A stretch of 64,000 nt of DNA from an uncultured bacterium (lineage in GTDB: Bacteria; Zixibacteria; MSB-5A5; CAIYYT01), in assembly GCA_963726455.1 (NCBI GenBank), contig CAVSCK010000004.1, forward strand, positions 672,001 to 736,000, in the 5' to 3' direction. Made by a program: the position numbers and the translations under genes. A model generated the notes under the pieces. That model did no database searches. It was not told the origin of the DNA and was given only the letters and a program-made list of their open reading frames with translations. Every line of letters begins with the position of its first letter. Position 1 is the stretch's first letter. Below are positions 7,295-20,137 of this stretch, piece after piece.

Positions 7295-8944
7295 CTACTT
7301 CGTCGGTCCGCAGGCGCAGACTTCCGGTGGGCAGCCGTCGGCGTACTTCTTGAAGTTCTCGCGATAGAGCGACGCCAGTTGCTTGTACTTCTGATCGTAG
7401 GCCTTCTTGTCGGGCCAACTCTTGCACGGATAGAGGACATCATCGGCACGTTCGGACAGGTCTTGGGAACATTGTAATCCGAACACTTCGTCTTTGTAGT
7501 ACTCGACATTGTCCAATTGTCCGGTCAATGCGGCTTCGAGCAGCGCGCGAGTGTGTTTGATACTGATGCGTCGTCCGACACCATACTGTCCGCCGACCCA
7601 GCCGGTATTGACCAGCCAGCAGTTGACATTGTGGCGCTGGATCTTGCTTCTTGAGCAGGTCGGCATAGTAGGCCGGATGATGCACCATAAACGGCGCGCC
7701 AAAACAGGCCGAGAAAGTGATTTCCGGTTCCTTGCCCATATCGATTTCGGTGCCGGAGACCTTCGCCGTGTAGCCGGAGATAAAATGATACAGCGCCTGA
7801 TCGGGCGTCAACCGCGCGATCGGCGGCATCACACCACTCGCGTCGCAAGTCAGCATGATGATATTCTTCGGATGCCCGGCGCGCTTTTCCGGCAGCGCGT
7901 TGTCGATGTATTCCAGCGGATAGGAGATGCGCGTGTTTTCGGTGCGTTCGTCATCGTCGAGATCAAGCTGGCGCGTGACGGGATCCATAATGACGTTTTC
8001 GAGAATCGTTCCGAACCGGCGCGTGCAGGCATAGATTTCCGGTTCCGCCGTCGCCGACAGGTTGATCGCCTTTGCGTAGCAGCCACCTTCGAAATTGAAC
8101 ACGCCCTCATCGCTCCAGCCATGCTCGTCGTCGCCGATCAGATGACGGCGCGGATCGGCCGACAGCGTGGTCTTGCCGGTGCCGGAGAGACCGAAGAACA
8201 ACGCCGATATCACCATCTTTGCCGACGTTGGCGGAGCAGTGCATCGACATGATGCCCTGCAGCGGCAGCAGGTAATTCAGAATCGTGAAGGCCGATTTCT
8301 TGATCTCGCCGCCGTAGCCGGTGCCGCCGATGATCACCAGGCGCTGCTCGAAGTTGAGCAGAATGAACGTCGGCGTCAGCGTGCCGTCGATCGAAGGCAT
8401 CGCCTGGAATGACGGAATCGAGATGATCGTGAAATCGGGACGTGAGGCGCTTCAGCTCGTCGAGCTCGTCAATCTTGATGAACATGTTGCGGGCAAACAG
8501 CGAATGCCAGGCGAATTCGGTGATCACGCGAATCGGCATTTGGTAATTCGGATCGGCGCCGACATAGCAGTCCTGCACGAACAGATCGCGTCCTTGCAGA
8601 TAGGCCTGCAACCGCGTCGTAGACGCCGGAGAATCTGTCGGCGCTGAACGGACGGTTGTATTGTCCCCACCAGATGTTGTCCTCGGTGGTTGCTTCGCTG
8701 ACGATGAATTTGTCATTGGCGGCGCGTGCCGTGTGTTTGCCGGTGTTGACCACCAGCGGTCCCATGTGCGCCAAAGCTGCCTTCGCGACGGAACAGCGCC
8801 TCGCCATAAAGCGCCGCGGAGTGTCAGATTCCAATAGACGACGCCGAGATTGGTCAGGCCGTGATTGCTCAGCTTGAATTCGCTGGCGCGTTCTTTGGCG
8901 ATTTCATGAGCCGGTGTCTTTATATTCCAGATATTGCCGATCAT
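7295..8944 (-). CDS. pckA: Phosphoenolpyruvate carboxykinase (ATP), split by several indels
   Basis: [59 protein letters not shown] motifs across successive frames. Confidence 0.95.
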
Positions 8945-10163
8945 TGCCAGTCCCTCACAAGCTTGCGGTCGCCAATGTAGATTTCGTTGGGAGAATTCGG
9001 ATCGAGCGCCCATTTGATGCGCGCGACCCCCTCCATGATATCTTTGACCGTACGTGCAGTAGCTCAAACGCAAATGCCCTTCCATGCCGAATTCCTTGCC
9101 CGGAACCGCCACGACCATACTTTCTCAAGCAGCATCTTGGACAGCTTGACCGAATCGTTGCTGTAAGCGCGGAAATCGGGGAGCGAATAGAAGGTGCCGT
9201 CCGGCGGAATCAGTTTCACGCCGTCGAAGGCCTTCAGTTCCTGAACCATCACATTGCGGTTGTTTTCCAGCGTCAGACGCAAGCTCTTCGACGCCACTCT
9301 GCAGACCGGTCAGCGCGCCGACTGCGGCAACCTGCGACAACAGCGGCGGACAGGATGTCGTCTGCGCCTGCACGTTCACCATCGTGTCGACGATCTGCTT
9401 GCTGGCAATCGTCCAGCCGATGCGATAGCCGGTCATGGCGTAGAGTTTCGACACGCCGTTGATCACGATCAATTTCGACTGATTGATGATCAACCTTGGA
9501 GTATTTGTAGCACGGCGTCCATTGCGCCGGCGGAAAGACCAGCTTGTGATAGATGTCATCCATGATCAGAGTAGATGCCCTTCTTCTCGCAATACTCGAC
9601 CAGACTCGCCGATGAAGTCGGCTGTATAGACCGCGCCGGAAGGATTGTTCGGGCTGTTGACGATGATCGCCTTGGTGTACGAACTGACCATGTCGGTGAC
9701 ATCATCAAGCTCGGGCTGAAATCGGCCATCCCCCGGCGTGACAATCACCGGTTTGCCGTAAACCATCTTGACCATTTCCGGATAGCTCACCCAGTACGGC
9801 GCGAGAATGATCACTTCATCGAGCGGGTTGATGATCGTCGTCAGCACTGCCGACAGTGCCTGTTTGGCGCCGTTGGAGACGATGACGTTGTCTTTGCCCG
9901 ATGACCTTGTTGTAGTTCTCTTCCATGTAGCGGATAATCGCCTTGCGCAGCGAGCCGATGCCCTCGGTCGGAGTGTAGCGAACTTCCGCAGTAGCAAGCT
10001 GGGCGGCGCAACTCAGCATGGCCTCGAAAGGAATTTTGCTTTTCGGTTCTCCTGCGCCCAGATGAATGACGGCTTCGCCGCGGTCACGCAGGTCTTGCGC
10101 CTCTTCATTCAGCTTCAGAGTCGGTGATTCGGCAATTTCACGCGCAAGCTGGCTAATGCTCAT
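8941..10163 (-). CDS. PLP-dependent class I/II (aspartate-type) aminotransferase, split by indels
   Basis: LGAGEP, GAKQAL, PYWVSY, NSPNNPSG, DDIY, GVSKLYAMTGYRIGW, LRLSYC; ATGA overlap with pckA. Confidence 0.9.
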
Positions 10164-10257
10164 AGGCTTTATGCCTCGCATCCTAAAAATATAATTGCCT
10201 TCTTCCCACCGGGATAAAGCCAGAACCCGGCACGAAGAGGGCATCTTACTAGCTAAT

Positions 10258-10321
10258 AATATGGTGTAATAGGCCCCGAGAGTCAAATAAAAGTTGTGTC
10301 GGATTGTGAAAATTGTCACGA
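10258..10321 (-). promoter_or_regulatory. Sigma70-type promoter plus CRP/Rex-like palindrome upstream of aminotransferase-pckA
   Basis: Minus strand TTGACT-N17-CATATT (10286-10258); TTGTGAAAATTGTCACGA at 10304-10321. Confidence 0.45.
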
Positions 10322-10487
10322 GAAGTTAGTGGTCAAAACGCGGCGGATTCCGGTGATTGGAGGCGCTTTTTTCCGGCCTAATCGACTCGCTCCTTCCAAG
10401 AGTACGCGGTATTCATATGGCGGATGCGCTCCCTCACCCCTTTTTAGCTCGCTTCTTTGACAGCTCGACTGGTATTGACTTGACCTG

Positions 10488-10601
10488 CGCGCTCCCTCAC
10501 CCCTAACCCCTCTCCCACTGGGAGAGGGGAAAAAGCGCTAGTTTAGAATGTTCTCCCCTCACCCCTTGGGAGAGGGGCCGGAGGTGAGGGGTTACGCGCC
10601 T
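10488..10601. repeat. 114-bp REP-doublet unit, copy 1 (direct repeat of 11110-11223)
   Basis: Contains ccctcacccctaacccctctcccactgggagagggg and an inverted degenerate partner; 6 mismatches versus the second copy by manual alignment. Confidence 0.9.
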
Positions 10602-10950
10602 GGAGTATCAGTTGAAGCACGGTTTCGAGTTTACTTTCCACCTGATCACTAGTAAATCGCAGAATTCTGTAACCGCCAGATTCCAGAATGGACCGGCGAA
10701 CAGCATCCATTTCCGCCTTGTCGGGCAAGGCGTGAATCCCGCCATCGATTTCGATGATAAGTCCGTTATCGTGGCTATAGAAGTCAGCGATGTATCGGCC
10801 GATCGCGTGCTGTCTGCGGAATTTCATGCCGTGCAATTGCCGGTTGCGGAGACACAGCCAGAGCATTTCCTCACTGTTGGTTGGATGCTTGCGGAACTCT
10901 CGACAAAGTTGGAGCAGATACGGAGGAAGTTTGTCTTTGTGGCCGAGCAT
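10543..10950 (-). CDS. DUF559 / very-short-patch-repair (Vsr)-like endonuclease A
   Basis: LCREFRKHPTNSEEMLWLCLRNRQLHGMKFRRQHAIGRYIADF...IIEIDGGIH...GYRILRF; upstream TTG start at 11004 is possible. Confidence 0.9.
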   Translation of the reverse strand: MLGHKDKLPPYLLQLCREFRKHPTNSEEMLWLCLRNRQLHGMKFRRQHAIGRYIADFYSHDNGLIIEIDGGIHALPDKAEMDAVRRSILESGGYRILRFTSDQVESKLETVLQLILQARNPSPPAPLPRGEGRTF

Positions 10951-11029
10951 TGACAGAAGATATGTGGTGGTCAAGTCATTCGCAATGGCTAGGCGCTCCC
11001 TCAAAGATCGCAGGCACAGTTGTCTCCCA

Positions 11030-11077
11030 CGCGCTCCCTCACCCCTAACCCCTCTCCCACTGGGAGAGGGGAAAAAG
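11030..11077. repeat. Single 48-bp REP-like unit identical to the first half of the 114-bp repeat
   Basis: cgcgctccctcacccctaacccctctcccactgggagaggggaaaaag; partial copies at 10426-10441 and 10993-11003. Confidence 0.9.
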
Positions 11078-11109
11078 ATTCACGGATTTGGAATCTCTCT
11101 AGAGTCCGA

Positions 11110-11223
11110 CGCGCTCCCTCACCCCTAACCCCTCTCCCACTGGGAGAGGGGAAAAAGCGCTAGTTTAGAATGTTCTCCCCTTGCCCTTTGGGAGAGGGGC
11201 CGGGGGTAAGGCGTTACGCGCCT
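11110..11223. repeat. 114-bp REP-doublet unit, copy 2
   Basis: Direct repeat of 10488-10601. Confidence 0.9.
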
Positions 11224-11301
11224 TGCGGGTTCGATGTGACAAGACATAAATCGTTCGGGCGCCCGTGGGTCGCGAGCGCCCGTGAGGTTGAACGGGAGGA
11301 T

Positions 11302-12546
11302 TTATTTGACTACTAACTTGGCGAAATCATACCAGTCGACCTGCTCGGTGCGACCTTTATCGTCCGTGATCAAGATGCCGCGATTGTCCTCGTCGACATC
11401 GTTGGAGCCGCGCAACAAGTAGCTGCTGCCGTTGCGCAAGGTGATAGTCGCGCCGCTCTGAGAGCTTTTCTCGATCGCGGAAATTGCCGAAAACGGGATG
11501 TCCATTTCGATGCCTTTGTACTCGCCATTGAGATATTCCCAACTGAATTGCTCATCGTCATCCCACACGATCTCGCCGGCAAACTGGGAGCCGTCTTCGG
11601 TGGTCACCGCGCCCTTAACCGCCTGGCCGCCGTTGAAATCGTCGTACTTGGGAAGTTTATCCTTGGACACAGGCAGGAACTCCGCCTTCTCGAAATCGGC
11701 CCAGTCAATCTTGACTCTGCCGAACTCGGGTGACTTGACAATAATGCCGCGGTTTTCGGAGTTGATGTCGTTGGAGTTGCGGAGGATAATCTCCTTGCCA
11801 TCCTTCAGTAAGATGGTCGCCGATGTAGAAGAACGCCTCTCGATGGAGGTGATGCGATCAAAGCTGATCTTCCTTGTGCGACCGCCTTCTTCTTCTCCAT
11901 CGAGATCGTCCTTATTGAAAACTTCGTCGACATCCCATTCGATCCAGCCGGTAAACTCGCCTGCGCGCCGCGTACTGACGCGGCCGAAGAGGCGTTCCAG
12001 CCCATCGTCGGGGTCCTTGGGTTCTTTCAGGAAATCGATTTTCTCAATGTCTTCCCAATCGAAGTAGATGTCTCCCTCTTTGATATCAGAAAGCAGGATT
12101 TCGCGCACCGACGATCCGAGATCGGAACTGGCCGAGAAGGTGACTTCGCTCCCTGATTTGAGCAGCAAAGTTGCCTCCCCGTCGCCTTCATTCTGAAGCG
12201 TGCGAATATGACCGAAGGCAAGCTGGCAGGTAGACGAACCACCCAGCTCCAACACCGAACCCTCATCGCCAAACTTCAGTCCAAAGATGCTGATCGTCGT
12301 GCGGCGGTCACGGTTGCGATAATGTCGTCCCGATTTGGTTTTGGTATCCGCTTGAGACTTCAGTTCGCAGGTGCCGTCAATGAGATCATCCCAATAGGCC
12401 TCGTTCTTATCCCAGCGGATCCAGCCCTCGAAAACTTCATTGTCGGTGGTGAATAATTTGCCGTAGAGTCGTCCTGACTCGGCGAGAAGATGTTCGGTTT
12501 GAAAAAATATCAGTGCAATTGGCAACAGTAACAGTCTGCGCATCAA
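11302..12546 (-). CDS. Secreted protein with three internal repeats, function unknown
   Basis: Signal peptide; G.V.T....F.G.I.WD.DE....D.L.G repeated three times. Confidence 0.75.
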   Translation of the reverse strand: MMRRLLLLPIALIFFQTEHLLAESGRLYGKLFTTDNEVFEGWIRWDKNEAYWDDLIDGTCELKSQADTKTKSGRHYRNRDRRTTISIFGLKFGDEGSVLELGGSSTCQLAFGHIRTLQNEGDGEATLLLKSGSEVTFSASSDLGSSVREILLSDIKEGDIYFDWEDIEKIDFLKEPKDPDDGLERLFGRVSTRRAGEFTGWIEWDVDEVFNKDDLDGEEEGGRTRKISFDRITSIERRSSTSATILLKDGKEIILRNSNDINSENRGIIVKSPEFGRVKIDWADFEKAEFLPVSKDKLPKYDDFNGGQAVKGAVTTEDGSQFAGEIVWDDDEQFSWEYLNGEYKGIEMDIPFSAISAIEKSSQSGATITLRNGSSYLLRGSNDVDEDNRGILITDDKGRTEQVDWYDFAKLVVK

Positions 12547-12766
12547 CTATCCTCCCAAAGATGACTGAATTTAACTGTCTATCATTACGAGGGTTGTCGG
12601 GAATTGTTTCGTTGAGGGAAAAAGAATTTTCGACTCCGGTGACACCGAAAATCGCAGGAGCGAGCCGGAATGACTCGCTCCAGGAGACGCTGTCTTGACA
12701 GTGGCGCGGATTCCAATCCTTGGAGGCGCCTGCAAGACCTAAGAGCGCGCGCTGCAGTCAGCGGCG

Positions 12767-14047
12767 CTAAAAATCAAAGTCGACGAGAACAGTAAATTGG
12801 TCCTCTTGCAATTTATCTTCTATTCCTGTTTGCCTGTGCGTGTACTCGGCATGAAGCGCAACATTCACCGCCGTCCAGTCGCCCAGATAATATCGCAATA
12901 GAAACGAGAATGCCCTGATGCGGCTCTCGCGGTCACGGGTAGGCGTTTCGACCCAGTTGTACATTGTAGAAGCCAGCAAACGGTTATTGGGCAATGCCGC
13001 CAGATCCAATTCGACGAACCCCCCATTATACTTGTAATCGCCCATATGGGGATCCGAGCTCGGATTGATAGCGCCATCATCAGTACCGTGGAGGAACAGG
13101 CCGCGCACGTTGAAGGTCCCGAAGTTCAGACTGGTCTCGAGACCGAGACGGTAGAACTTCTTATTGTGCGTGCCACCGTTCTCACCGGTCGGAGCAACGA
13201 TTGGACCAAGTTCGGTAGGCACCCAGCCGACATATCCGAGGCCGCCGACGCGATATCCCGCGCTCTGGCCTTCCCCACCACCAAACACCTGATACACCGA
13301 TGCATACCAGTCTTTCGTCCTGTTATTGTCCGGACGCGAACCAGTGCCGTTTACGACGCCCAATCCGTAATGGGTGCCCGTCTTGAAATGGCCGGTAGCT
13401 TCCAGACCAAATTGATTGTCATCGAAAACAAAACTATTGCCCGGAGTCTGGAAGCCGTAAACCTCGTACGGAGTCATTATGTAGTATGAACGCTTGGAGC
13501 TGATAGCGTGATACGCCGGCTCGAATCGTCCGACGCGCAGACTCAATTTGTCCTTAACCAAATTGCTGAAAACGGCATTGACCGATTCCAGCGCACCGGG
13601 TTGGCTGGCGTCGGAATTGTTGTAAGCACCAGTCGGTTCATCTATGCGCGGAGTGTAAATCAGCATAAACGAAATGTTCTGATGCAGCACTCCGGAAGCC
13701 AGCAGATCAAAACCATAGACACCAAAGCCGCTCGTGGTTCCCGCCACTGTTCTCGTAGAATTGGGACGTTCCAGTTTAGAGTGATACATTGACGCGCCGG
13801 TTGAGGTGCGCATGGAGATTGGCGGCCAGGATTCGATAATGTTCTTCTCATTACCTTCCTGACCCATTACCTGGTATCCGTTATCGCGGTAGCGTTGGCC
13901 CCAGTCATTCAGCTTCGTAAACGATGTGTGGCAGTTGTTGCAATTAAAACCGTACTTCCGCGAAAACGCGGGAATGGCGCTTACCGAATCAGCCAACAGC
14001 AGGCCGAAAAAGATCGCGATCATTGACAAAGCAAATAGTCTTTTCAT
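12767..14047 (-). CDS. Cyc2-like fused monoheme cytochrome c / outer-membrane beta-barrel
   Basis: Signal peptide, then AIPAFSRKYGFNCNNCHT...NGY (CxxCH); amphipathic strands; C-terminal ...VDFDF. Confidence 0.75.
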   Translation of the reverse strand: MKRLFALSMIAIFFGLLLADSVSAIPAFSRKYGFNCNNCHTSFTKLNDWGQRYRDNGYQVMGQEGNEKNIIESWPPISMRTSTGASMYHSKLERPNSTRTVAGTTSGFGVYGFDLLASGVLHQNISFMLIYTPRIDEPTGAYNNSDASQPGALESVNAVFSNLVKDKLSLRVGRFEPAYHAISSKRSYYIMTPYEVYGFQTPGNSFVFDDNQFGLEATGHFKTGTHYGLGVVNGTGSRPDNNRTKDWYASVYQVFGGGEGQSAGYRVGGLGYVGWVPTELGPIVAPTGENGGTHNKKFYRLGLETSLNFGTFNVRGLFLHGTDDGAINPSSDPHMGDYKYNGGFVELDLAALPNNRLLASTMYNWVETPTRDRESRIRAFSFLLRYYLGDWTAVNVALHAEYTHRQTGIEDKLQEDQFTVLVDFDF

Positions 14048-14058
14048 AATCGTCTCCC

Positions 14059-15128
14059 CTATTCAGGCATCTCGGACTGAGGAATCGGTTTCTCATCGGC
14101 AACAGCCGCGTTCGTGCTGACGACAGCCCGCTTCATGAATGCCACCAGCGCGGCGACTTCGGTCTTTGACAAGCCGAGCGGAACCATCAGAGGATCGAGA
14201 TTCGACTTATCCGGCCCGCCGCCACGATTATAGAGCGCGACGACATCCTCAAGGGTCTTCTCGCCGCCCGTGTGCATGTAAGGAGCGCGTTTGGCAGCGT
14301 CGCGAACGGTCGGCGTTTTGAAGGCGCCCTTGTCATCAGGATCCTTGGAAATCGCAAAGCGACCGTCATCCGGTTTCTGGCCGGCAGGCGGCGCAACGCC
14401 GAGATTATGAAAACGACCGTCGCTCATGTAACCGCCCCAATGACAAGAAGAGCAGTGTCCTTTGCCGTTGAATATCTCGAGCCCCTGTTTCTCCTGCTTG
14501 GTCAGAGCTGACTTGTCGCCGCGAACGTAGCGGTCGAATGGCGAGTCGGTAGTTACAATCGTGCGTTCGTAGGCGGCAATCGCCTGGGCAACTTGGTCGA
14601 CTGTAATGGGAGTAGTGCCGAACACCTGCTTGAACTCGTCGACGTAGCCGGTCAACTTGCTCAGACTCTGAATCATGACTTCGTGGGTGTTGCCCATTTC
14701 AATCGGATTCTGAATCGGTCCCTTTGCCTGTTCTTCCAGACTCGGTGCACGACCGTCCCAGAATTGCAGCGGGCTGTAAGCGGCGTTGACAACCGGCGGA
14801 GCGCGCCGGCCCCCAGTTGGCCGCGAATACCTTTACTCGTGGGACCGGCATCCGACCATCCCATAGCCGGATCGTGGCAGGTTGCGCAACTGACCGTGTT
14901 GTCGGCTGACAAGCGCGTGTCGAAGTAAAGCTTCTTGCCGAGCAGAATTTTTGCCGCAGTCTGCGGATTGTCCGGTGGCGCTACAATCGCCGGCAGGTTT
15001 CCTATTCTTTCTGGTCCAAGGGAATGTACATTTACCGCGGTAAGAGGAACCGGGGCGTTGTCGTCTGCCAGTGCGACTATCGCCGCCAGCAGGACTAATG
15101 AGACAACCAAAAAACAAAGTCTGTTCAT
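14059..15128 (-). CDS. Di-heme cytochrome c peroxidase (CCP/MauG family), frameshifted
   Basis: [41 protein letters not shown]; one frameshift near 14800. Confidence 0.9.
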
Positions 15129-15467
15129 CAGGCCTTCTCCTTTCGGTTGGAATTCTCTAGCTCCGTGACATAGATGCGTGGAGCATCTGGACTACCTTTG
15201 TCCTCTGAATTGCCAATTTCCCCGCGAATGTCAAACTAAAACTTTCGCCGGCAATCACGACACTTTCTGTCCCCTAAAAGCGAAAGGAGCCCGTCGCGTA
15301 AACGAGCTCCCTCGGGACCCTGTTCCTCCTGCCCTTCGAAACCTTTCCCTTGATCCACTAGTTATTATTGGAATCCTCACTGTCAGATCCTGTCAGTGAC
15401 TTGAAAAAAATTCAAAAAAATGTGACGGTACGGTCACGGCAAGGCTGACAGCGGCAACGTTTCAATG

Positions 15468-15496
15468 TTGACAGTACCGCATAACAGACGTATCCT
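15468..15496 (+). promoter_or_regulatory. Sigma70-type promoter of the zf-lemA-htpX operon
   Basis: TTGACA-N17-TATCCT about 30 nt before ATG 15528. Confidence 0.6.
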
Positions 15497-15527
15497 TTTG
15501 GCCATCTCACCGTATAAGGAGACCTGA

Positions 15528-15913
15528 ATGAATTGTGTCGCCTGTAATGAGCCGATGGTGGTTCTGGAAATAGCCGAAGTGGAAATAGATCACTGCCTTG
15601 CGTGCGGCGGTGTCTGGCTCGATTCGGGTGAGATTGAGCTACTGTTGGGCGACGAGCACGAGGCCAAGAAGCTGTTACAGCAGATTGGATCGAGAGAAAA
15701 CCGTCAGCATGGCAAGCGAAAATGCCCGATCTGCCTGAAGAAGATGGAAATTGTCATCGGTCGGATACGGATGACAAAGTGCAACTTGACTGGTGCTCAA
15801 GACACCACGGTGTCTGGTTTGACCGCGGCGAACTGGAAGAGGTCCTGAAGATATTTGACGCCGACCGGCACAGCGAGGTCATCGGACTACTGAAACAAGT
15901 GTTTCGAAAATAG
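15528..15913 (+). CDS. Tandem zf-TFIIB zinc-ribbon protein, frameshifted
   Basis: CVAC..EIDHCLACGGVWLDSGE and CPIC..LDWCSRHHGVWFDRGELE in two frames. Confidence 0.85.
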
Positions 15914-15939
15914 ATATCGTTCAAAGAAAGGGTTACTAG

Positions 15940-16503
15940 ATGGTTGTCCTGTTTATTTTTCTGGCCATTGTTGTCGTGATTGTCTTCTGGCTGGTGGGTA
16001 TGTACAACTCGCTGGTCGGATTGCGCAATCAGGTCAAGAACGCCTGGGCGCAGATTGATGTCCAACTCAAACGCCGTCACGATTTGATCCCCAACCTGGT
16101 GGAGACGGCGAAGGGATACATGCAGCACGAGCGCGGCACGCTGGAAGCCGTCACCAACGCGCGCGGCAAGGCCATGGGCGCCGAGTCGGTCGGCGACAAA
16201 GCCAAAGCCGAGGGCGAACTTTCCGGCGCCATCAGCCGCTTCATGTTGGTCGTAGAGAATTATCCCGACCTCAAGGCGAATCAGAATTTCCTGGCGCTGC
16301 AGGAAGAATTGACGTCGACGGAAAACAAGATCGCGTTCAGCCGGCAGGCCTACAACGACCAGGTGCTGTTCTTTAACAACAAGATTCAGATGTTTCCGTC
16401 GAGTATCATTGCCGGTATGTTCAACTTCCAGCAGAGCGAATTCTTCGAACTGGAAGACAAAGGTGATCGTGAGGCGCCGAAAGTTGATTTCACGCAGAAG
16501 TAG
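15940..16503 (+). CDS. lemA: LemA family protein
   Basis: N-terminal TM; YNSLV..NAWAQIDVQLKRRHDLIPNLV; ENYPDLKANQNF. Confidence 0.95.
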   Translation: MVVLFIFLAIVVVIVFWLVGMYNSLVGLRNQVKNAWAQIDVQLKRRHDLIPNLVETAKGYMQHERGTLEAVTNARGKAMGAESVGDKAKAEGELSGAISRFMLVVENYPDLKANQNFLALQEELTSTENKIAFSRQAYNDQVLFFNNKIQMFPSSIIAGMFNFQQSEFFELEDKGDREAPKVDFTQK

Positions 16504-16540
16504 GAATGTGTCAACTCATCCGGTTTCTGGGCGGTAGATC

Positions 16541-17996
16541 ATGTGGGAATTGATCAAGCAGAATCAGCGCAAATCGCTGGTGCTGTTCTTCCTGATGGGC
16601 TGTTGCCTGGTGTTGCTTGGGCTATCTGCTGGGGGCGGCGTATGCTGCCTCCCGATGGCGGCATGCTTGGTATCACGACTGGCGCTAATCATCTGGCTGA
16701 TTCTGTCGTTCATCAGTTTCTTTGCCGGCGACAGCATTGTGCTCAGTGTGAGCGGCGCCAAAGAAGTCACGCGCGACAGTTCATCCACAGCTCTTCAACG
16801 TAGTCGAAGAGATGAAAATCGCCGGCAGTCTGCCCGCAATGCCGAAGGTCTATATCATGGACACGGAGGCGCCCAATGCCTTCGCGACAGGGCGCAAACC
16901 GGAAAACTGCGCGATTGCGGTGACGGCCGGTCTTTTGTCGCGGCTGAATCGCGATGAACTTCAGGGCGTAGTCGCGCACGAGACCTCGCACATCATCAAT
17001 CGAGATGTTCTATTCATGACCTTCGCGGGGATAATGCTGGGAAGCATTGTCCTGATTTCGGAAATCTTCCTGCGCGGGTTGTGGTTCTCCGGCGGCTCGT
17101 CGCGTCGCTATCGTTCGAGTTCCGATCGCGGCGGCGGACAGGGCCAGGCGATTGTTGCGATAGTGGCGATTCTGTTTGCGATTCTCGCGCCGATTCTGGC
17201 ACAGCTACTTTATTTTGCGATTTCCAGGCGGCGGGAATATCTCGCGGATGCTTCGGCGGTGCGGTTGACTCGTTACCCGGAAGGTTTGGCATCGGCTCTC
17301 GAAAAGATCTCGACATCATCCGAACAACTGCCGCGAGCGAACAAGGTCACGGCGCCGATGTATATTGTCAACCCGCTCAAGCGCGAGGGCGAGAAGCTGT
17401 CTGATCTGACCAGCACACATCCACCGATTTCGGAGCGAATCAAGATTTTGCGTGGCATGGCGCAGGGTGCGGGATATCTCGACTACCAGCAGTCTTTCAG
17501 CCGTGTTACCGGGCAGAGTAAGATCATTCCGGATTCAGAATTGAAGGACGCTGCTGCTGTTCCGGTTCGCGCCTCGTCGGGAGAAACAGCGCCAAGTCCG
17601 TCTGACAGATCGGTCAAACGCGGCGTCGGCGACATTGTACGCGCGATGAATGGGTTCCTGTTTCTCACCTGCACTTGCGGACTCAAGATCAAGATTCCGC
17701 CTGACTTCAAACAGAGTGCTCTCCCCTGCCCGCGTTGCGGCAGGGAGTTGAAAGTCCCGACAGCGGAATTGGCGACGGTAGCAGCAGGTCTCGAAGCTGC
17801 GGAAGGTAAACTACCTTCTGATACTAGCACGGTGTTGCAGGCCGCAGCGACATACACTCGCAAAGGTTCCGGATGGGAGACGTTCAACTGTGTCTGCGGA
17901 AAACCGATCCAGATTTCACCGGCATTTAGCGGTACGAAAATCACCTGCAGTTCCTGCGGGCGGGAAACTCAAATACTTGGCGGCGCGGCAAATTAG
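16541..17996 (+). CDS. htpX: HtpX-like M48 zinc metalloprotease with C-terminal zinc ribbons, frameshifted near the 5' end
   Basis: PNAFATG, HETSH (HExxH), SRRREYLAD, STHPP; C-terminal CTCG/CPRC and CVCG/CSSC. Confidence 0.85.
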
Positions 17997-18053
17997 CTGA
18001 CATTAGAATTTGGCCAGTATAATAATCAATCAAATGAAGAGGTTATCCAGAGA

Positions 18054-18809
18054 ATGATAAGTCTCAAAGGTAAGACCGCACTAATCACCGGCGCATCGCG
18101 CGGCATCGGCAAAGCAACGGCAATCATACTGGCAAAAGCGGGCTGCGATGTGGCGATTAATTACTTATCCAATGATCGGGCGGCAGATGAAGTCGTAAAG
18201 AGCGCGTCGGCTCTGGGAGTACGTGCCGTCAAAGTCAAAGCCGATTTGGCCGATCGTGCGCAGACAACGCATATGGTCGGCGAAGTCGTAAAGCGGCTCG
18301 GACGGCTAGATATTCTGGTAAACAACGGCGGCATCTGGAAAGAGGCGGCGATCGACACTATGACCGAAGCGCAGTTACGCGAGACAGTGGATATCAATTT
18401 GATGGGAGTGTTTTACGCGATCGGCGCCGCAGTGCCGCAAATGAAGCAGCAAAGATCAGGCAATATCATTAGTATATCATCTACCGCCGGTCAGCGCGGC
18501 GAACCATTTCACTCTCACTATGCAGCCACCAAAGGGGCCGTTATTAGTCTTACAAAGTCGCTCGCTCCCGAGTTGGCGGCGTTCAATATCCGTGTGAACT
18601 GCGTGGCGCCCGGTTGGGTTGACACCGATATGACGACTGATTCTCTGGCCGCGCCTGATGCAGACAAGATTCTGAATCTAATTCCCCTGGGACGTGTCGG
18701 CACACCGGACGAGATTGCCGGCGCAGTGCTGTTCCTTGCATCCGAGCTCTCAACTTTCATTACCGGTGAAATTCTGAATGTGAACGGTGGCGCGGTATTG
18801 TGCGGTTAA
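18054..18809 (+). CDS. SDR family oxidoreductase (FabG-like)
   Basis: TGASRGIG, LVNNGG, YAATK, VNCVAPG, ITGEILNVNGG. Confidence 0.9.
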   Translation: MISLKGKTALITGASRGIGKATAIILAKAGCDVAINYLSNDRAADEVVKSASALGVRAVKVKADLADRAQTTHMVGEVVKRLGRLDILVNNGGIWKEAAIDTMTEAQLRETVDINLMGVFYAIGAAVPQMKQQRSGNIISISSTAGQRGEPFHSHYAATKGAVISLTKSLAPELAAFNIRVNCVAPGWVDTDMTTDSLAAPDADKILNLIPLGRVGTPDEIAGAVLFLASELSTFITGEILNVNGGAVLCG

Positions 18810-18836
18810 CCGCAGGCGCGATGAATATGCCCACGC

Positions 18837-19148
18837 TATTCCCCTCTTGTGAGAGGAATAAATGGGTTGTGTCAAATTGCACATAATGCAAGACGCCACC
18901 TTTAATATTTAGGTGTTTGTTCCTCTCTTGAGAGGGGAATACAAGGGGTGTGTCACTTGGCAACTTCATACCCAAACAAATGGATCGCGCTACGTGCCTC
19001 CCACGCTGGCTAGTTATTCTCCTCTTGAGAGGGGAATACAAGGGGTGTGTCATTTGGCGACCAGGCACCCGAACAAATCAATCGAACTACGTGCTCTCCG
19101 CGTTAGCGAGTTATTCCCCTCTTGAGAGGGGAACAAAAGGGGTGTGTT
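18837..19148 (+). repeat. Left array of four palindromic repeats (TTCCCCTCTTGAGAGGGGAA..AAGGGGTGTGT) flanking DUF559 B
   Basis: Copies at about 18837, 18920, 19014 and 19111. Confidence 0.9.
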
Positions 19149-19168
19149 CTTCGAGTAGCTCCTTCGAT

Positions 19169-19546
19169 CTACGAATTCCGTTTTCCGCGCTCAACAATCC
19201 ATTCTCGTATCGACACAATCACCCCCGACAGATTGTCCTTCACGTCCCTATCGAGCAACCGCAGCACGGTAATGCCGAGTTCCTCCAATCGACGCTGACG
19301 AGATTCATCTTTCTCTAAGCGGTCGTTGTGACTTGAGCCGTCAATTTCGATGGCGAGCATGAGTTCGTTACAAAAGAAGTCCACAATGAAAGTGGCAATC
19401 GGCTTCTGCCTGTGAAAGTCAAAACCAAGCATCTGTTTGCCCTTCAACTGCCGCCACAATAGCACTTCGGAGAGCGTGCTGTTGCGGCAAAGCAATCTGG
19501 CACGCTCCTTTAGTCTGGCGTCGTACGGGAGAATCTTTCTTCTCAT
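19169..19546 (-). CDS. DUF559 / Vsr-like endonuclease B
   Basis: LKERARLLCRNSTLSEVLLWRQLKGKQMLGFDFHRQKPIATFIVDF...AIEIDGSSH...RQRRLEELGITVLR. Confidence 0.9.
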   Translation of the reverse strand: MRRKILPYDARLKERARLLCRNSTLSEVLLWRQLKGKQMLGFDFHRQKPIATFIVDFFCNELMLAIEIDGSSHNDRLEKDESRQRRLEELGITVLRLLDRDVKDNLSGVIVSIREWIVERGKRNS

Positions 19547-19548
19547 CT

Positions 19549-19742
19549 AACACACCCCTTGTCTTCCCCTCTCAAGAGGGGAAGAACGCCTAAATGTTAA
19601 GAGTGTCGTGTTGTGTGACGTGCAACTTGACAACCCCTTGTATTCCCCTCTCAAGAGGGAAAGAACGCCTAAATGTTAAGAGTGCCATGTTCTATGCCGC
19701 GCAACTTGACACACTCCTTTTGTTCCCCTCTCAAGAGGGGAA
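19549..19742 (-). repeat. Right array of three palindromic repeats, inverted relative to the left array
   Basis: ACACCCCTTG..TTCCCCTCTCAAGAGGGGAA at about 19549, 19628 and 19707; period about 79 bp. Confidence 0.9.
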
Positions 19743-19825
19743 GAACTCACTCACTGTGCTCCCATCGCAAACTTTGGATTATCAAGTTGGTCAAAGGATT
19801 GACGCAGAAGGGCGATTTCCCGCCC

Positions 19826-20137
19826 TTACCTTCCCGAGAGCAGATGGTAATGCAAGTGAAACACGGTCTGGCCTGAACGCGGGCCGTTGTTGATCATTAC
19901 GCGGAAGTCTTTGGCCTTGTCACCCAATTCCTCCACGACATGCTTTACGGTTTCCGCCAGCATGCGATGCACTTCAGGAGGGGCATCCATAAAATCGCGG
20001 TAGTGAGTCTTGGGGCAAATCAACAGATGAATCGGCATCGCCTGGGCGCGATCGTGGAAAACGATGACATCATCGGTCTCGTAAAATATCTTCGCAGGCG
20101 CTTCGCCACTAATAATGCGGCAGAAAATGCAATTCAC
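19826..20137 (-). CDS. HIT family (histidine triad) nucleotide-binding protein
   Basis: NCIFCRII, HLLICPK, GQTVFHLHYHL. Confidence 0.9.
   Translation of the reverse strand: MNCIFCRIISGEAPAKIFYETDDVIVFHDRAQAMPIHLLICPKTHYRDFMDAPPEVHRMLAETVKHVVEELGDKAKDFRVMINNGPRSGQTVFHLHYHLLSGR

Follow-up and report, generated by a model that had tools for sequence, protein, structure and literature searches.

Two genes coding for small DUF559 proteins lie in the window (the whole stretch of 64,000 nucleotides that was analyzed), and each is enclosed by its own family of short repeats. DUF559 genes are paired with repeats of the same architecture in many other genomes, where the repeat variant follows the protein clade and the parts of each repeat vary in concert. 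Sister species differ in whether a given site holds a whole cassette. We favor a model, with a probability of roughly 55%, where these cassettes form a class founded on a partnership like that of REP sequences and RAYT proteins, with each nuclease acting on its own repeat variant. We infer that the nuclease binds and cleaves DNA, that its cut site is at the repeat, and that it drives dispersal.

The DUF559 genes and repeats of the window

ORF A (DUF559_A, A clade; 10543..11004, minus strand) codes for 153 amino acids, although the true start is likely the ATG at 10950. It was identified from the list of open reading frames, by a match to the Pfam DUF559 profile PF04480 (E = 2.9e-32, 111.2 bits against a curated cut-off of 20.6) and by alignment with A-clade relatives, in which it retains the D/E-x-D/H columns that are called catalytic. 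ORF B (DUF559_B, B clade; 19169..19546, minus strand), from the same list, codes for 125 amino acids, matches PF04480 with E = 1.4e-27 and 96.2 bits (same cut-off of 20.6), and is 31% identical to ORF A. The two are the only PF04480 matches in the 3.64-Mb genome. Likewise, when 37,031 six-frame segments were searched at E <= 10 with an HMM built from 70 DUF559 proteins, only ORF A and ORF B were retrieved; E. coli YcjD, the positive control, was matched at 5.6e-37. Residues E27, W31, F44, R46, E67, D69, H73 and D80 are invariant in the 70 sequences, which include both window proteins, and D56 is retained in at least 90% of them. We take E67, D69, H73 and D56 to be the catalytic columns of a Vsr-like PD-(D/E)xK core.

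An AlphaFold2 model of ORF B (pLDDT 88.4) has as its best Foldseek matches the uncharacterised protein NGO0050 (3HRL, E = 1.2e-7, also matched by sequence at E = 4e-14), the EDxHD homing endonuclease I-Bth0305I (3R3P, E = 2e-4) and Vsr (1VSR, probability 1.0), and the DUF559 proteins of the window are predicted to share the fold common to these three. Unlike I-Bth0305I, neither gene resides in an intron or intein. Both are free-standing and intergenic, and an Rfam search of positions 10000-20000 revealed no intron or other family at the gathering score, so a homing gene of the intron or intein type was rejected.

The 36-nt core of family A occurs three times in the window with no mismatches, at 10494, 11036 and 11116, and was matched in none of 100 shuffles. 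A complete module comprises a hairpin, a TTA linker and a GGGGTGAGG box, and its strand is named as the one that reads the hairpin and then the box. The module at 10495..10529 (minus strand, found by motif search) forms a single-stranded DNA hairpin of -11.7 kcal/mol (z = -3.3). Together with a variant copy located within the 3' end of ORF A (10555..10590, plus strand, also from the motif search), whose box is directed towards the gene, it constitutes a 114-nt inverted doublet at 10488-10601 that folds at -34.4 kcal/mol (z = -5.6). The doublet extends into the 3' end of the gene, such that the stop and the last ~16 codons are encoded by a family A module. Another module with its box towards the gene lies upstream of ORF A (11037..11071, minus strand, recovered by motif search and core matches). 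This is followed by a second 114-nt doublet (11110..11223, plus strand), composed of a module at 11117-11151 and a degenerate partner at 11173-11211. The two doublets are 95% identical at a spacing of 622 nt, and the second carries a copy of the ORF A 3' end upstream of the gene itself.

Family B has six copies with at most three mismatches, three to the left of ORF B on one strand and three to its right on the other; again, 100 shuffles gave no match. The enclosure of each gene by its own repeat family, which an earlier note on this DNA had described, thus lies far beyond chance for both families. The downstream array (18920..19147, plus strand) has modules at 18921-18952, 19018-19048 and 19114-19146 with a period of 97 nt and boxes pointing towards ORF B, and an additional decayed copy lies near 18837-18877. 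The upstream array (19550..19746, minus strand) has modules at 19551-19584, 19630-19661 and 19710-19742 with a period of 79 nt, and its single-stranded hairpin folds at -9.8 kcal/mol (z = -2.9). The gene-proximal box of this array, AAGGGGTGTGT, ends 3 nt before the ATG of ORF B and looks like its ribosome-binding site. ORF B is almost exactly enclosed by inverted arms at 19110-19148 and 19549-19587 (39 nt, 92% complementary), and the gene consequently has terminal inverted repeats of the kind that define insertion sequences and MITEs.

Repeat design and related systems

The repeats are 30-40 nt long. A pyrimidine arm is followed by a loop and a purine arm and then, after a linker, by a G/T box that is the mirror image of the purine arm. 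This third block is arranged to pair G with G, and T or A with A, antiparallel to the purine arm. Judged by its sequence, family A is the BoxC/PIT/TMECO motif, and family B is a shorter variant of the same triplex-type repeat. The ACCCCT-containing arm that the earlier note had correctly placed before a hairpin corresponds to the third strand of this intrastrand-triplex design. Triplex formation by the strands of both families is putative.

According to PMC4666352, BoxC/PIT/TMECO repeats were noted in the 1990s. They are present in hundreds of genomes, form triplexes in vitro and mark unstable loci. Circular dichroism and NMR demonstrated the triplex in vitro for the E. coli motif, whereas DMS footprinting by Holder et al. 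in 2015 revealed no stable triplex in vivo (PMC4666352). In vitro the motif acts as a block to polymerase, and the instability of its loci is described as intrinsic; the main text of the paper names no protein partner, reports that remnants of transposases or integrases were not found, and contains no mention of ycjD, DUF559 or endonuclease (PMC4666352). The repeats described there share with ours the three-block design of C/T arm, G/A arm and mirror G/T block, and family A has identical arm and box words and both of the published linker types, TTA and CCG, in forms that have one stem mismatch and forms that lack it. Both sets are intergenic and multi-copy, are distributed over many phyla, and occupy loci that vary between close relatives. 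Our repeats depart from the motif as published in that they bracket a nuclease gene and, for family B and for a family C from related genomes, have shorter arms (PMC4666352).

The arrangement also resembles the REPtron, as REP/REPIN sequences with their RAYT are described in PMC2817692, PMC3116915 and PMC3333891. In each case copies of a short palindromic repeat lie on either side of a nuclease gene of low copy number, many further copies are dispersed without the gene, inverted doublets and arrays are formed, and each gene has its own repeat variant. However, our proteins have a PD-(D/E)xK Vsr-like fold rather than that of an HUH Y1 transposase, where REP sequences have a GTAG/CGTC head ours have a mirror third block, and the gene tree suggests frequent horizontal transfer, whereas REPtrons, as described, descend mainly vertically. 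A REPtron proper was rejected on the basis of the enzyme, since a Pfam search gave no PF01797 (HUH Y1) match in ORF A or ORF B and the Y1_Tnp genes elsewhere in the genome have other repeats.

A generic triplex-motif finder recovered all 10 copies in the window, every one of which adjoins ORF A or ORF B. Genome-wide it returned 123 motifs, including 91 A-like and 23 B-like, and it does not distinguish a mirror register from a direct one, since near-gene hits in a control run with the direct register numbered 173 versus 184 and 132 versus 140. Strict modules number 50 for A and 14 for B. The earlier observation that neither family recurs within the 64 kb holds, but both are dispersed over the genome. 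Ten of the 123 motifs lie within 350 nt of the two DUF559 genes, and the roughly 110 gene-less copies are scattered elsewhere, some of them single and others in inverted doublets or tandem arrays. A tie of the repeats to a RAYT, which would have spoken against the proposal of the earlier note, was not seen: within 350 nt, none of the five Y1_Tnp (RAYT-like) genes of this genome has a triplex-type motif, nor does any of its three GIY-YIG genes. These genes carry other repeat families, and RAYT-type pairs are present among them. When 3232 ORFs were ranked by flank-to-flank repeats, the two DUF559 genes came 8th and 27th.

Pairing and probable mobility in other genomes

In related genomes, which are non-independent samples, 22 of 27 DUF559 loci exceeded every internal control placement for flanking repeats, and the three protein clades correspond to three types of repeat (A, B and C). 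The palindrome enrichment and the co-variation of repeat and protein clades anticipated by the earlier note were both borne out in wider samples, and of the three refuting outcomes that the note had listed none was obtained. Among 79 B-clade loci from about 20 phyla, 63 exceed the 99th percentile of 2506 control placements in their flank-to-flank repeat score. For 50 of the 84 DUF559 ORFs this score is at least 30 bits, as it is for 17 of the 397 other genes that these loci contain. Within 300 nt, a triplex motif is found at 57 of the 79 B-clade loci and, in metagenomes, at 68 of the 80 A-clade loci. Motif density near the gene is 1.86 per kb for the B clade and 2.52 per kb for the A clade, compared with 0.126 and 0.262 elsewhere in the loci. 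Where motifs occur on both sides, boxes face inward at 27 of 39 loci in the B clade and 28 of 46 in the A clade. No flanking repeat is seen at 16 of the 79 loci of the B clade, at 12 of the 80 of the A clade, or at two related-genome loci (L005 and L009). The gene-proximal box resembles a Shine-Dalgarno sequence located 3-15 nt before the start codon, and in the A and C clades the stop or last codons fall within a repeat. E. coli, which has 23 TMECO copies, carries a canonical motif ~170 nt downstream of ycjD and a degenerate one over the ycjD stop codon.

On a tree of 103 proteins, repeat class changes eight times versus at least 24 times in all 500 label shuffles, although some clustering is expected even without co-evolution because the gene and its flanks are physically linked. 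Co-variation is also evident inside the repeat. The G-run of the box equals that of the purine arm in 136 of 160, 17 of 23 and 5 of 8 of the 191 anchored records, and an A in the arm goes with T or A in the box, as does G with G. The protein tree cuts across phyla with identities of 53-65% between them, and therefore indicates horizontal transfer.

Repeats also occur without their matching gene. One related genome (97% complete) has 24 A-type hairpins and no DUF559 gene was found in it, while others have 53 or 34 A-type hairpins and a DUF559 gene of the B or C clade only. Either the gene is dispensable, or the clades cross-act, or genes were lost in assembly gaps. Hairpins nevertheless tend to be more numerous where the matching gene is present: the medians, computed by hand from tables for one family of genomes, are about 32, 22.5 and 25 with it versus 9.5, 6.5 and 1 without it.

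Whole cassettes are present or absent at equivalent sites between sister species. The site of ORF B spans 1035 bp here versus 32 bp in a sister species, and in a third species it holds a gene-less doublet of another family. Conversely, where a sister species has two cassettes of 854 and 790 bp, this genome has 53 and 229 bp. DUF559 is the only gene inside the cassettes, and gene ends that adjoin repeats are in places partially duplicated in tandem. At three cassette and three MITE sites the intergenic DNA is too diverged for a target-site duplication to be read, and the exact element boundary is not readable at the empty sites compared.

A proposed nuclease-repeat partnership and its alternatives

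The observations support the REP-like nuclease-repeat system that the earlier note had proposed, wherein binding, cutting and propagation by the nuclease would proceed as follows. The widespread, compact cassette would comprise a small Vsr-like (DUF559) gene between inward-facing triplex-type repeats of 30-40 nt. Each nuclease would recognize its own repeat variant, as a folded G-rich strand or as duplex, and would nick or cut there. The break may feed recombination or template switching, by which the gene-plus-repeat cassette would move and gene-less copies would multiply or rearrange. Such a system would be analogous to the REP/RAYT partnership, with a PD-(D/E)xK enzyme replacing the HUH tyrosine transposase. 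More tentatively, and with some doubt on our part, DUF559 might be the missing partner of BoxC/PIT/TMECO repeats, reading their three-stranded fold with a code that varies between clades and cutting there.

A nuclease that resembles I-Bth0305I, the homing endonuclease among its nearest characterised folds, might instead only insert its own gene into pre-existing triplex-type repeats that serve as landing sites. The repeats would then spread and rearrange independently of the nuclease, through stalled or slipping polymerases and the recombination of the host, which is compatible with the polymerase block and inherent instability described for the motif (PMC4666352), with the gene-end duplications that adjoin repeats, and with the many repeats lacking a matching gene. 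Horizontal transfer also suits such a selfish gene. We consider this explanation unlikely, since a multi-copy target should yield many gene copies but the genomes hold 0-3. Moreover, repeat variants have remained matched to their nuclease clades across deep divergence, which points to continued recognition of every copy, and genomes that have the matching gene tend to contain more hairpins. Quite unlikely, in our estimation, is a housekeeping or cis-regulatory link without propagation, where the nuclease clears hairpin or triplex obstacles or the repeats, as terminators and ribosome-binding site, insulate and regulate a potentially toxic gene. The Shine-Dalgarno-like boxes, the stop or last codons within repeats and the stable hairpins are in keeping with such a role, as is the genotoxicity of an unchecked DUF559 protein in Caulobacter (PMC12907096). 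Nevertheless, gene and flanks come and go between sister species and the tree is at odds with the phyla, which argues against housekeeping, while regulation alone leaves unexplained both the gene-less copies in this genome and the co-variation of third-strand box and hairpin.

Like those studied here, the Caulobacter protein, VsrA, has a DUF559 domain; it causes damage to DNA in vivo. It differs in being functionally tied to a cytosine methyltransferase and to methylation of the YGCCGGCR motif, and flanking repeats are not among the features reported in that source (PMC12907096). The tie to a methyltransferase and the similarity to the Vsr fold speak for classical repair by T:G nicking after deamination of 5-methylcytosine, with the repeats incidental. 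We regard this explanation as highly improbable: unlike Vsr, the proteins have no Dcm partner in the genome, which is 100% complete and has no match to PF00145 (C5-cytosine methyltransferase), a profile matched in 9 of 14 control genomes. In addition, the Pfam matches of ORF A and ORF B at E <= 0.01 do not include the Vsr profile, and the flanking repeats would be left unexplained.

We know of no protein or mechanism tied to BoxC/PIT/TMECO repeats and, to our knowledge, DUF559 is a very widespread domain without an assigned function. Our literature search found no paper that links DUF559 proteins to repeats of this type biochemically or genetically. A specific pairing of the two would account for both the orphan repeats and the orphan domain, and would carry the REP/RAYT principle of one nuclease and one repeat family to another enzyme fold. 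Naturally matched pairs of enzyme and repeat are at hand in A and B of the window and in E. coli ycjD with TMECO. If DUF559 is the missing partner of these repeats, the cassette of ~450-600 bp would amount to a minimal mobile element that is autonomous, ends in triplex-forming sequences and is accompanied by many non-autonomous copies, and a single genome would hold three unrelated small-nuclease folds (HUH Y1, GIY-YIG and Vsr-like), each with its own repeat family.

Two DUF559 genes and the repeats that frame them

The window carries two genes for Vsr-like nucleases of the DUF559 family (Pfam PF04480), both on the reverse strand. Gene A (10543-11004) codes for a protein of 153 amino acids (Pfam DUF559 E-value 2.9e-32), gene B (19169-19546) codes for one of 125 amino acids (1.4e-27), and the two proteins are 31% identical. 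A Pfam-based search identified these as the sole DUF559 genes of the 3.64 Mb genome (5 contigs, 54% G+C). Likewise, a custom HMM that recovers E. coli YcjD as a positive control at 5.6e-37 matched only genes A and B among 37,031 six-frame segments at E ≤ 10.

Three exact copies of a 36-nt family A core flank gene A, an arrangement matched in none of 100 shuffles. A 114-nt double unit is present on either side of this gene at 95% identity, and the final codons and stop of ORF A are encoded by one of its copies. Gene B resides between two oppositely oriented arrays that repeat every 97 and 79 nt and have six copies in total, and again 0 of 100 shuffles matched. The innermost family B copies are 39-nt inverted arms that are 92% complementary. 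They leave a gap of 3 nt to the ATG on one side of the gene and of about 20 nt to the stop on the other. A search of positions 10000-20000 against Rfam at E ≤ 1 revealed no known RNA family, and the only matches were three sub-threshold microRNA-hairpin look-alikes on the A doublet.

The 3' end of gene A is duplicated upstream of the gene together with the adjacent repeat (11165-11223 versus 10543-10601). At a sister-species locus (L025), the first ~22 nt of the DUF559 gene are copied upstream of the gene with the left repeat. Such duplicated ORF ends look like the outcome of template switching or unequal exchange at the repeats.

Between the two cassettes, each consisting of a DUF559 gene and its flanking repeats, two large ORFs of 414 and 426 amino acids (11302-14047) have no Pfam family above the cut-off. 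Several ordinary genes of the region (8210-10319, 14059-15128 and 16541-17996) are apparently broken into overlapping ORFs. Among the split genes of the window, one for an aminotransferase is in at least three pieces and one for a di-haem cytochrome c peroxidase is in two (profile positions 2-63 and 88-148), and the 5' end of an M48 peptidase gene is overlapped by a second ORF without a Pfam match. These genes could carry frameshifts caused by assembly indel errors, or they could be pseudogenes. If assembly errors are responsible, homopolymers within the repeats may likewise be one nucleotide too long or too short.

Repeat design, distribution and known relatives

Each repeat module is composed of a pyrimidine arm, a short loop, a complementary purine arm, a linker and a G/T box, in this order. 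The box repeats the purine arm in reverse order, with G kept and A replaced by T (or kept). Of 202 hairpin-plus-box records found, the 191 with an arm G-run of at least 4, from 108 DUF559 loci, form the covariation sample. Arm and box have G-runs of equal length in 136 of 160 records for runs of four, 17 of 23 for runs of five and 5 of 8 for runs of six. At the second variable position, a box G accompanies an arm G in 128 of 160 records and a box T accompanies an arm A in 15 of 17. The third position shows a box T or A with an arm A (95 of 109) and a box G with an arm G (21 of 23).

The full rule holds for 90 of the 132 records with three informative positions, compared with a mean of 61.8 and a maximum of 75 when boxes were shuffled in 5000 permutations. 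As judged from the sequences, this rule is the chemistry predicted for an antiparallel purine-motif triplex. The mirror rule rests on this anchored arm-box analysis and not on a generic triplex finder, which shows enrichment and not mirror symmetry because its direct-register control gave nearly as many matches as the mirror register.

The earlier note saw the two families only at the DUF559 genes, and this is true within the 64 kb but not genome-wide, where 50 strict A and 14 strict B modules occur. A family-agnostic triplex-motif finder places all 10 motifs of the window within 300 nt of genes A and B. The same finder reports 123 motifs for the whole genome (91 A-like, 23 B-like and 9 other), with a background on one contig of 5 motifs after shuffling versus 13 real motifs, and 10 of the 123 are located within 350 nt of the two DUF559 genes. 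Dispersed modules are arranged as singles, inverted doublets and tandem arrays.

Next to gene A, the family A copies combine a TTA linker with a mismatch-free stem, whereas dispersed A copies (e.g. C3:344952-345573 and C4:978946-979319) mostly carry a CCG linker and one conserved G-A stem mismatch. Because linker and stem differ, the gene-proximal and dispersed populations are distinct subtypes. GC skew is too noisy in this assembly for module strand to be compared with replication. An unbiased scan of 3232 ORFs found a flank-to-flank match of any kind at 105, with gene A ranked 8th and gene B 27th. Several of the ORFs that outrank them are spurious ORFs within repetitive protein genes, and one is a RAYT gene, which codes for the HUH Y1 (Y1_Tnp) partner of REP repeats.

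The motif has previously been called BoxC and PIT element, with 23 copies in E. coli K-12 (PMC4666352). Holder et al. 2015 (PMC4666352) report it from more than 260 genomes and find more rearrangement at its loci than at control loci. In that paper the linker is either TTA or CCG, and with either one the stem may be perfect or carry a single mismatch; family A shows exactly these linker types and stem states of the BoxC/PIT/TMECO motif. The authors report finding no remnants of a transposase or integrase around the motif, and their main text never names ycjD, DUF559 or an endonuclease. As published there, the motif comes without a named nuclease, whereas here it flanks a DUF559 gene. A literature search on DUF559, ycjD and the BoxC/PIT/TMECO motif, with some papers judged by title and with subscription journals and supplements outside its reach, found no published link between DUF559 and these repeats. 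In a separate report, the annotation 'DUF559 domain-containing protein' is listed as 14-fold enriched among predicted programmed-inversion targets (PMC9881135), which fits with genes that are framed by inverted repeats.

Gene-repeat pairing in other genomes

DUF559 genes are present in 19 of 31 genomes of a related set that includes this one. The flank-to-flank repeat exceeds every internal control placement at 22 of 27 fetched loci of related genomes, two of these 22 having one control only. In this set, L005 and L009 have no flanking repeat, L010 is beaten by two controls, and L022 and L023 are weak and close to contig ends. Three DUF559 protein clades carry three repeat types: clade A has the long TMECO-type motif, clade B a shorter CCCCTCT/AGAGGGG hairpin with a GGGGTGTGT box, and clade C a CCCCCTT/AAGGGGG hairpin with a GGGGGTTGT box.

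B-clade relatives (53-65% identical) were examined at 79 loci from about 20 phyla, including Patescibacteria, Nitrospirota, Planctomycetota, Bacillota, Cyanobacteriota and Acidobacteriota. The enrichment of repeats at DUF559 genes anticipated by the earlier note is borne out, with 63 of the 79 loci exceeding the 99th percentile (29.5 bits) of 2506 control placements. At these loci, 50 of 84 DUF559 ORFs reach at least 30 bits versus 17 of 397 other genes and 5 of 164 small genes, where 84 ORFs are counted because several crude ORFs can overlap one match and ORFs too near a contig end are left out of the 84-versus-397 comparison. A triplex motif is found within 300 nt of the gene at 57 of 79 B-clade loci and at 68 of 80 A-clade metagenome loci, and in both sets motifs are 10-15 times as dense near the gene as elsewhere in the loci. 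When motifs are present on both sides, the order hairpin-box, gene, box-hairpin is dominant (27 of 39 B-clade and 28 of 46 A-clade loci).

The ycjD gene of E. coli is an A-like DUF559 gene with a degenerate motif spanning its stop codon and a canonical motif about 170 nt downstream. The 3' end of ycjD is copied ahead of this downstream motif (locus L150, 7290-7370).

Repeat and protein vary together, as the earlier note had proposed. Across a tree of 103 proteins, left after identical rows among 108 were collapsed, and with 30 rows lacking a class label left uncounted, repeat class changes 8 times, compared with at least 24 in all 500 label shuffles. The A-long class forms one clade, as does the 5G-AA class. 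The tree does not follow phyla, and thus horizontal transfer is frequent.

Cassettes also vary in presence among close relatives. The SDR-HIT interval is 1035 bp here, with the arrays and gene B, and is a 32-bp spacer in one sister species; in another, it holds an inverted doublet of the C-type repeat without a gene. A sister species carries two C-clade cassettes of 854 and 790 bp at sites where this genome has 53 and 229 bp, respectively. That species has 50 C-type hairpins, mostly in MITE-like elements of ~180 nt that share only 35-40-nt hairpin-plus-box modules with the two gene-bearing copies. At a further intergenic site (C4:555825-556220), B modules are present here and a C-type element is present in a sister species. 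Since this site and 18810-19845 hold different families across the genus, some gene junctions are recurrent landing or retention sites. The flanks of filled and empty sites are too diverged for exact element ends or target duplications to be read.

Candidate nuclease partners and alternative explanations

Other repeat families flank four of the five Y1_Tnp (RAYT-like) genes in this genome (C2:21369-21857, C3:814060-814374, C5:437386-437865 and C4:1165957-1166487), and a GTAG-like starting word is visible in the repeats of two of these four. None of its own repeats was seen in the flanks of the fifth (C4:1605195). The five Y1_Tnp genes and three GIY-YIG genes have none of the 123 triplex motifs within 350 nt. 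The earlier note would have abandoned its proposal had the same repeats been tied to a RAYT; with zero of five Y1_Tnp genes carrying a triplex motif and four of five carrying other families, we reject such a link for this genome.

The small GIY-YIG nuclease genes (C4:551751-552038, C4:554083-554370 and C5:594041-594406) all rank high for flank-to-flank repeats in the ORF scan, and at least two of the three have families of their own. Two were identified by Pfam scan (E-values 3.7e-16 and 5.3e-22) and the third as a near-identical paralogue. The gene at C4:551751 is bracketed by inverted copies of a hairpin family that contains the word GGGAATGAC (54 matches to this word genome-wide), and that at C5:594041 by direct copies of a different repeat. 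Thus, three unrelated nuclease folds (GIY-YIG, Y1 and DUF559) are accompanied by private repeat families in one genome.

An AlphaFold2 model of the gene B protein has a pLDDT of 88.4, and the structures it matches best are those of NGO0050 (3HRL), the homing endonuclease I-Bth0305I and Vsr. The 70-row input alignment comprises this protein, ORFs from the 63 of 79 B-clade loci left after filtering by start and length, and 6 further rows, and acidic and histidine columns are conserved in it. No C5-cytosine methyltransferase was found in this genome, which makes classical Vsr repair unlikely here.

When a matching DUF559 gene is present, hairpin counts tend to be higher, with exceptions. No DUF559 gene was found, with either of two queries, in a genome that has 24 A-type hairpins; genomes with 53 and 34 A-type hairpins hold a B- or C-clade gene only; and one with 40 B-type hairpins has no B-clade gene. 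Most of these are fragmented metagenome assemblies that may have lost repeat-flanked genes, but the exceptions still count against a strict dependence between gene and repeat.

Chance or a mere insertion hot spot is rejected by the control placements, the comparison with other genes, and the comparison with Y1 and GIY-YIG genes. Among the main rival readings, we consider it unlikely that a homing-type gene has merely landed in self-propagating repeats. A housekeeping or regulatory link between DUF559 and the repeats seems slightly less probable still. We favor, with a probability of roughly 0.55, a reading drawn from sequence comparison in which each nuclease putatively acts on its own repeat variant. 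The cassette and its gene-less copies would then constitute a system resembling REP/RAYT, with a different enzyme and triplex-type ends.
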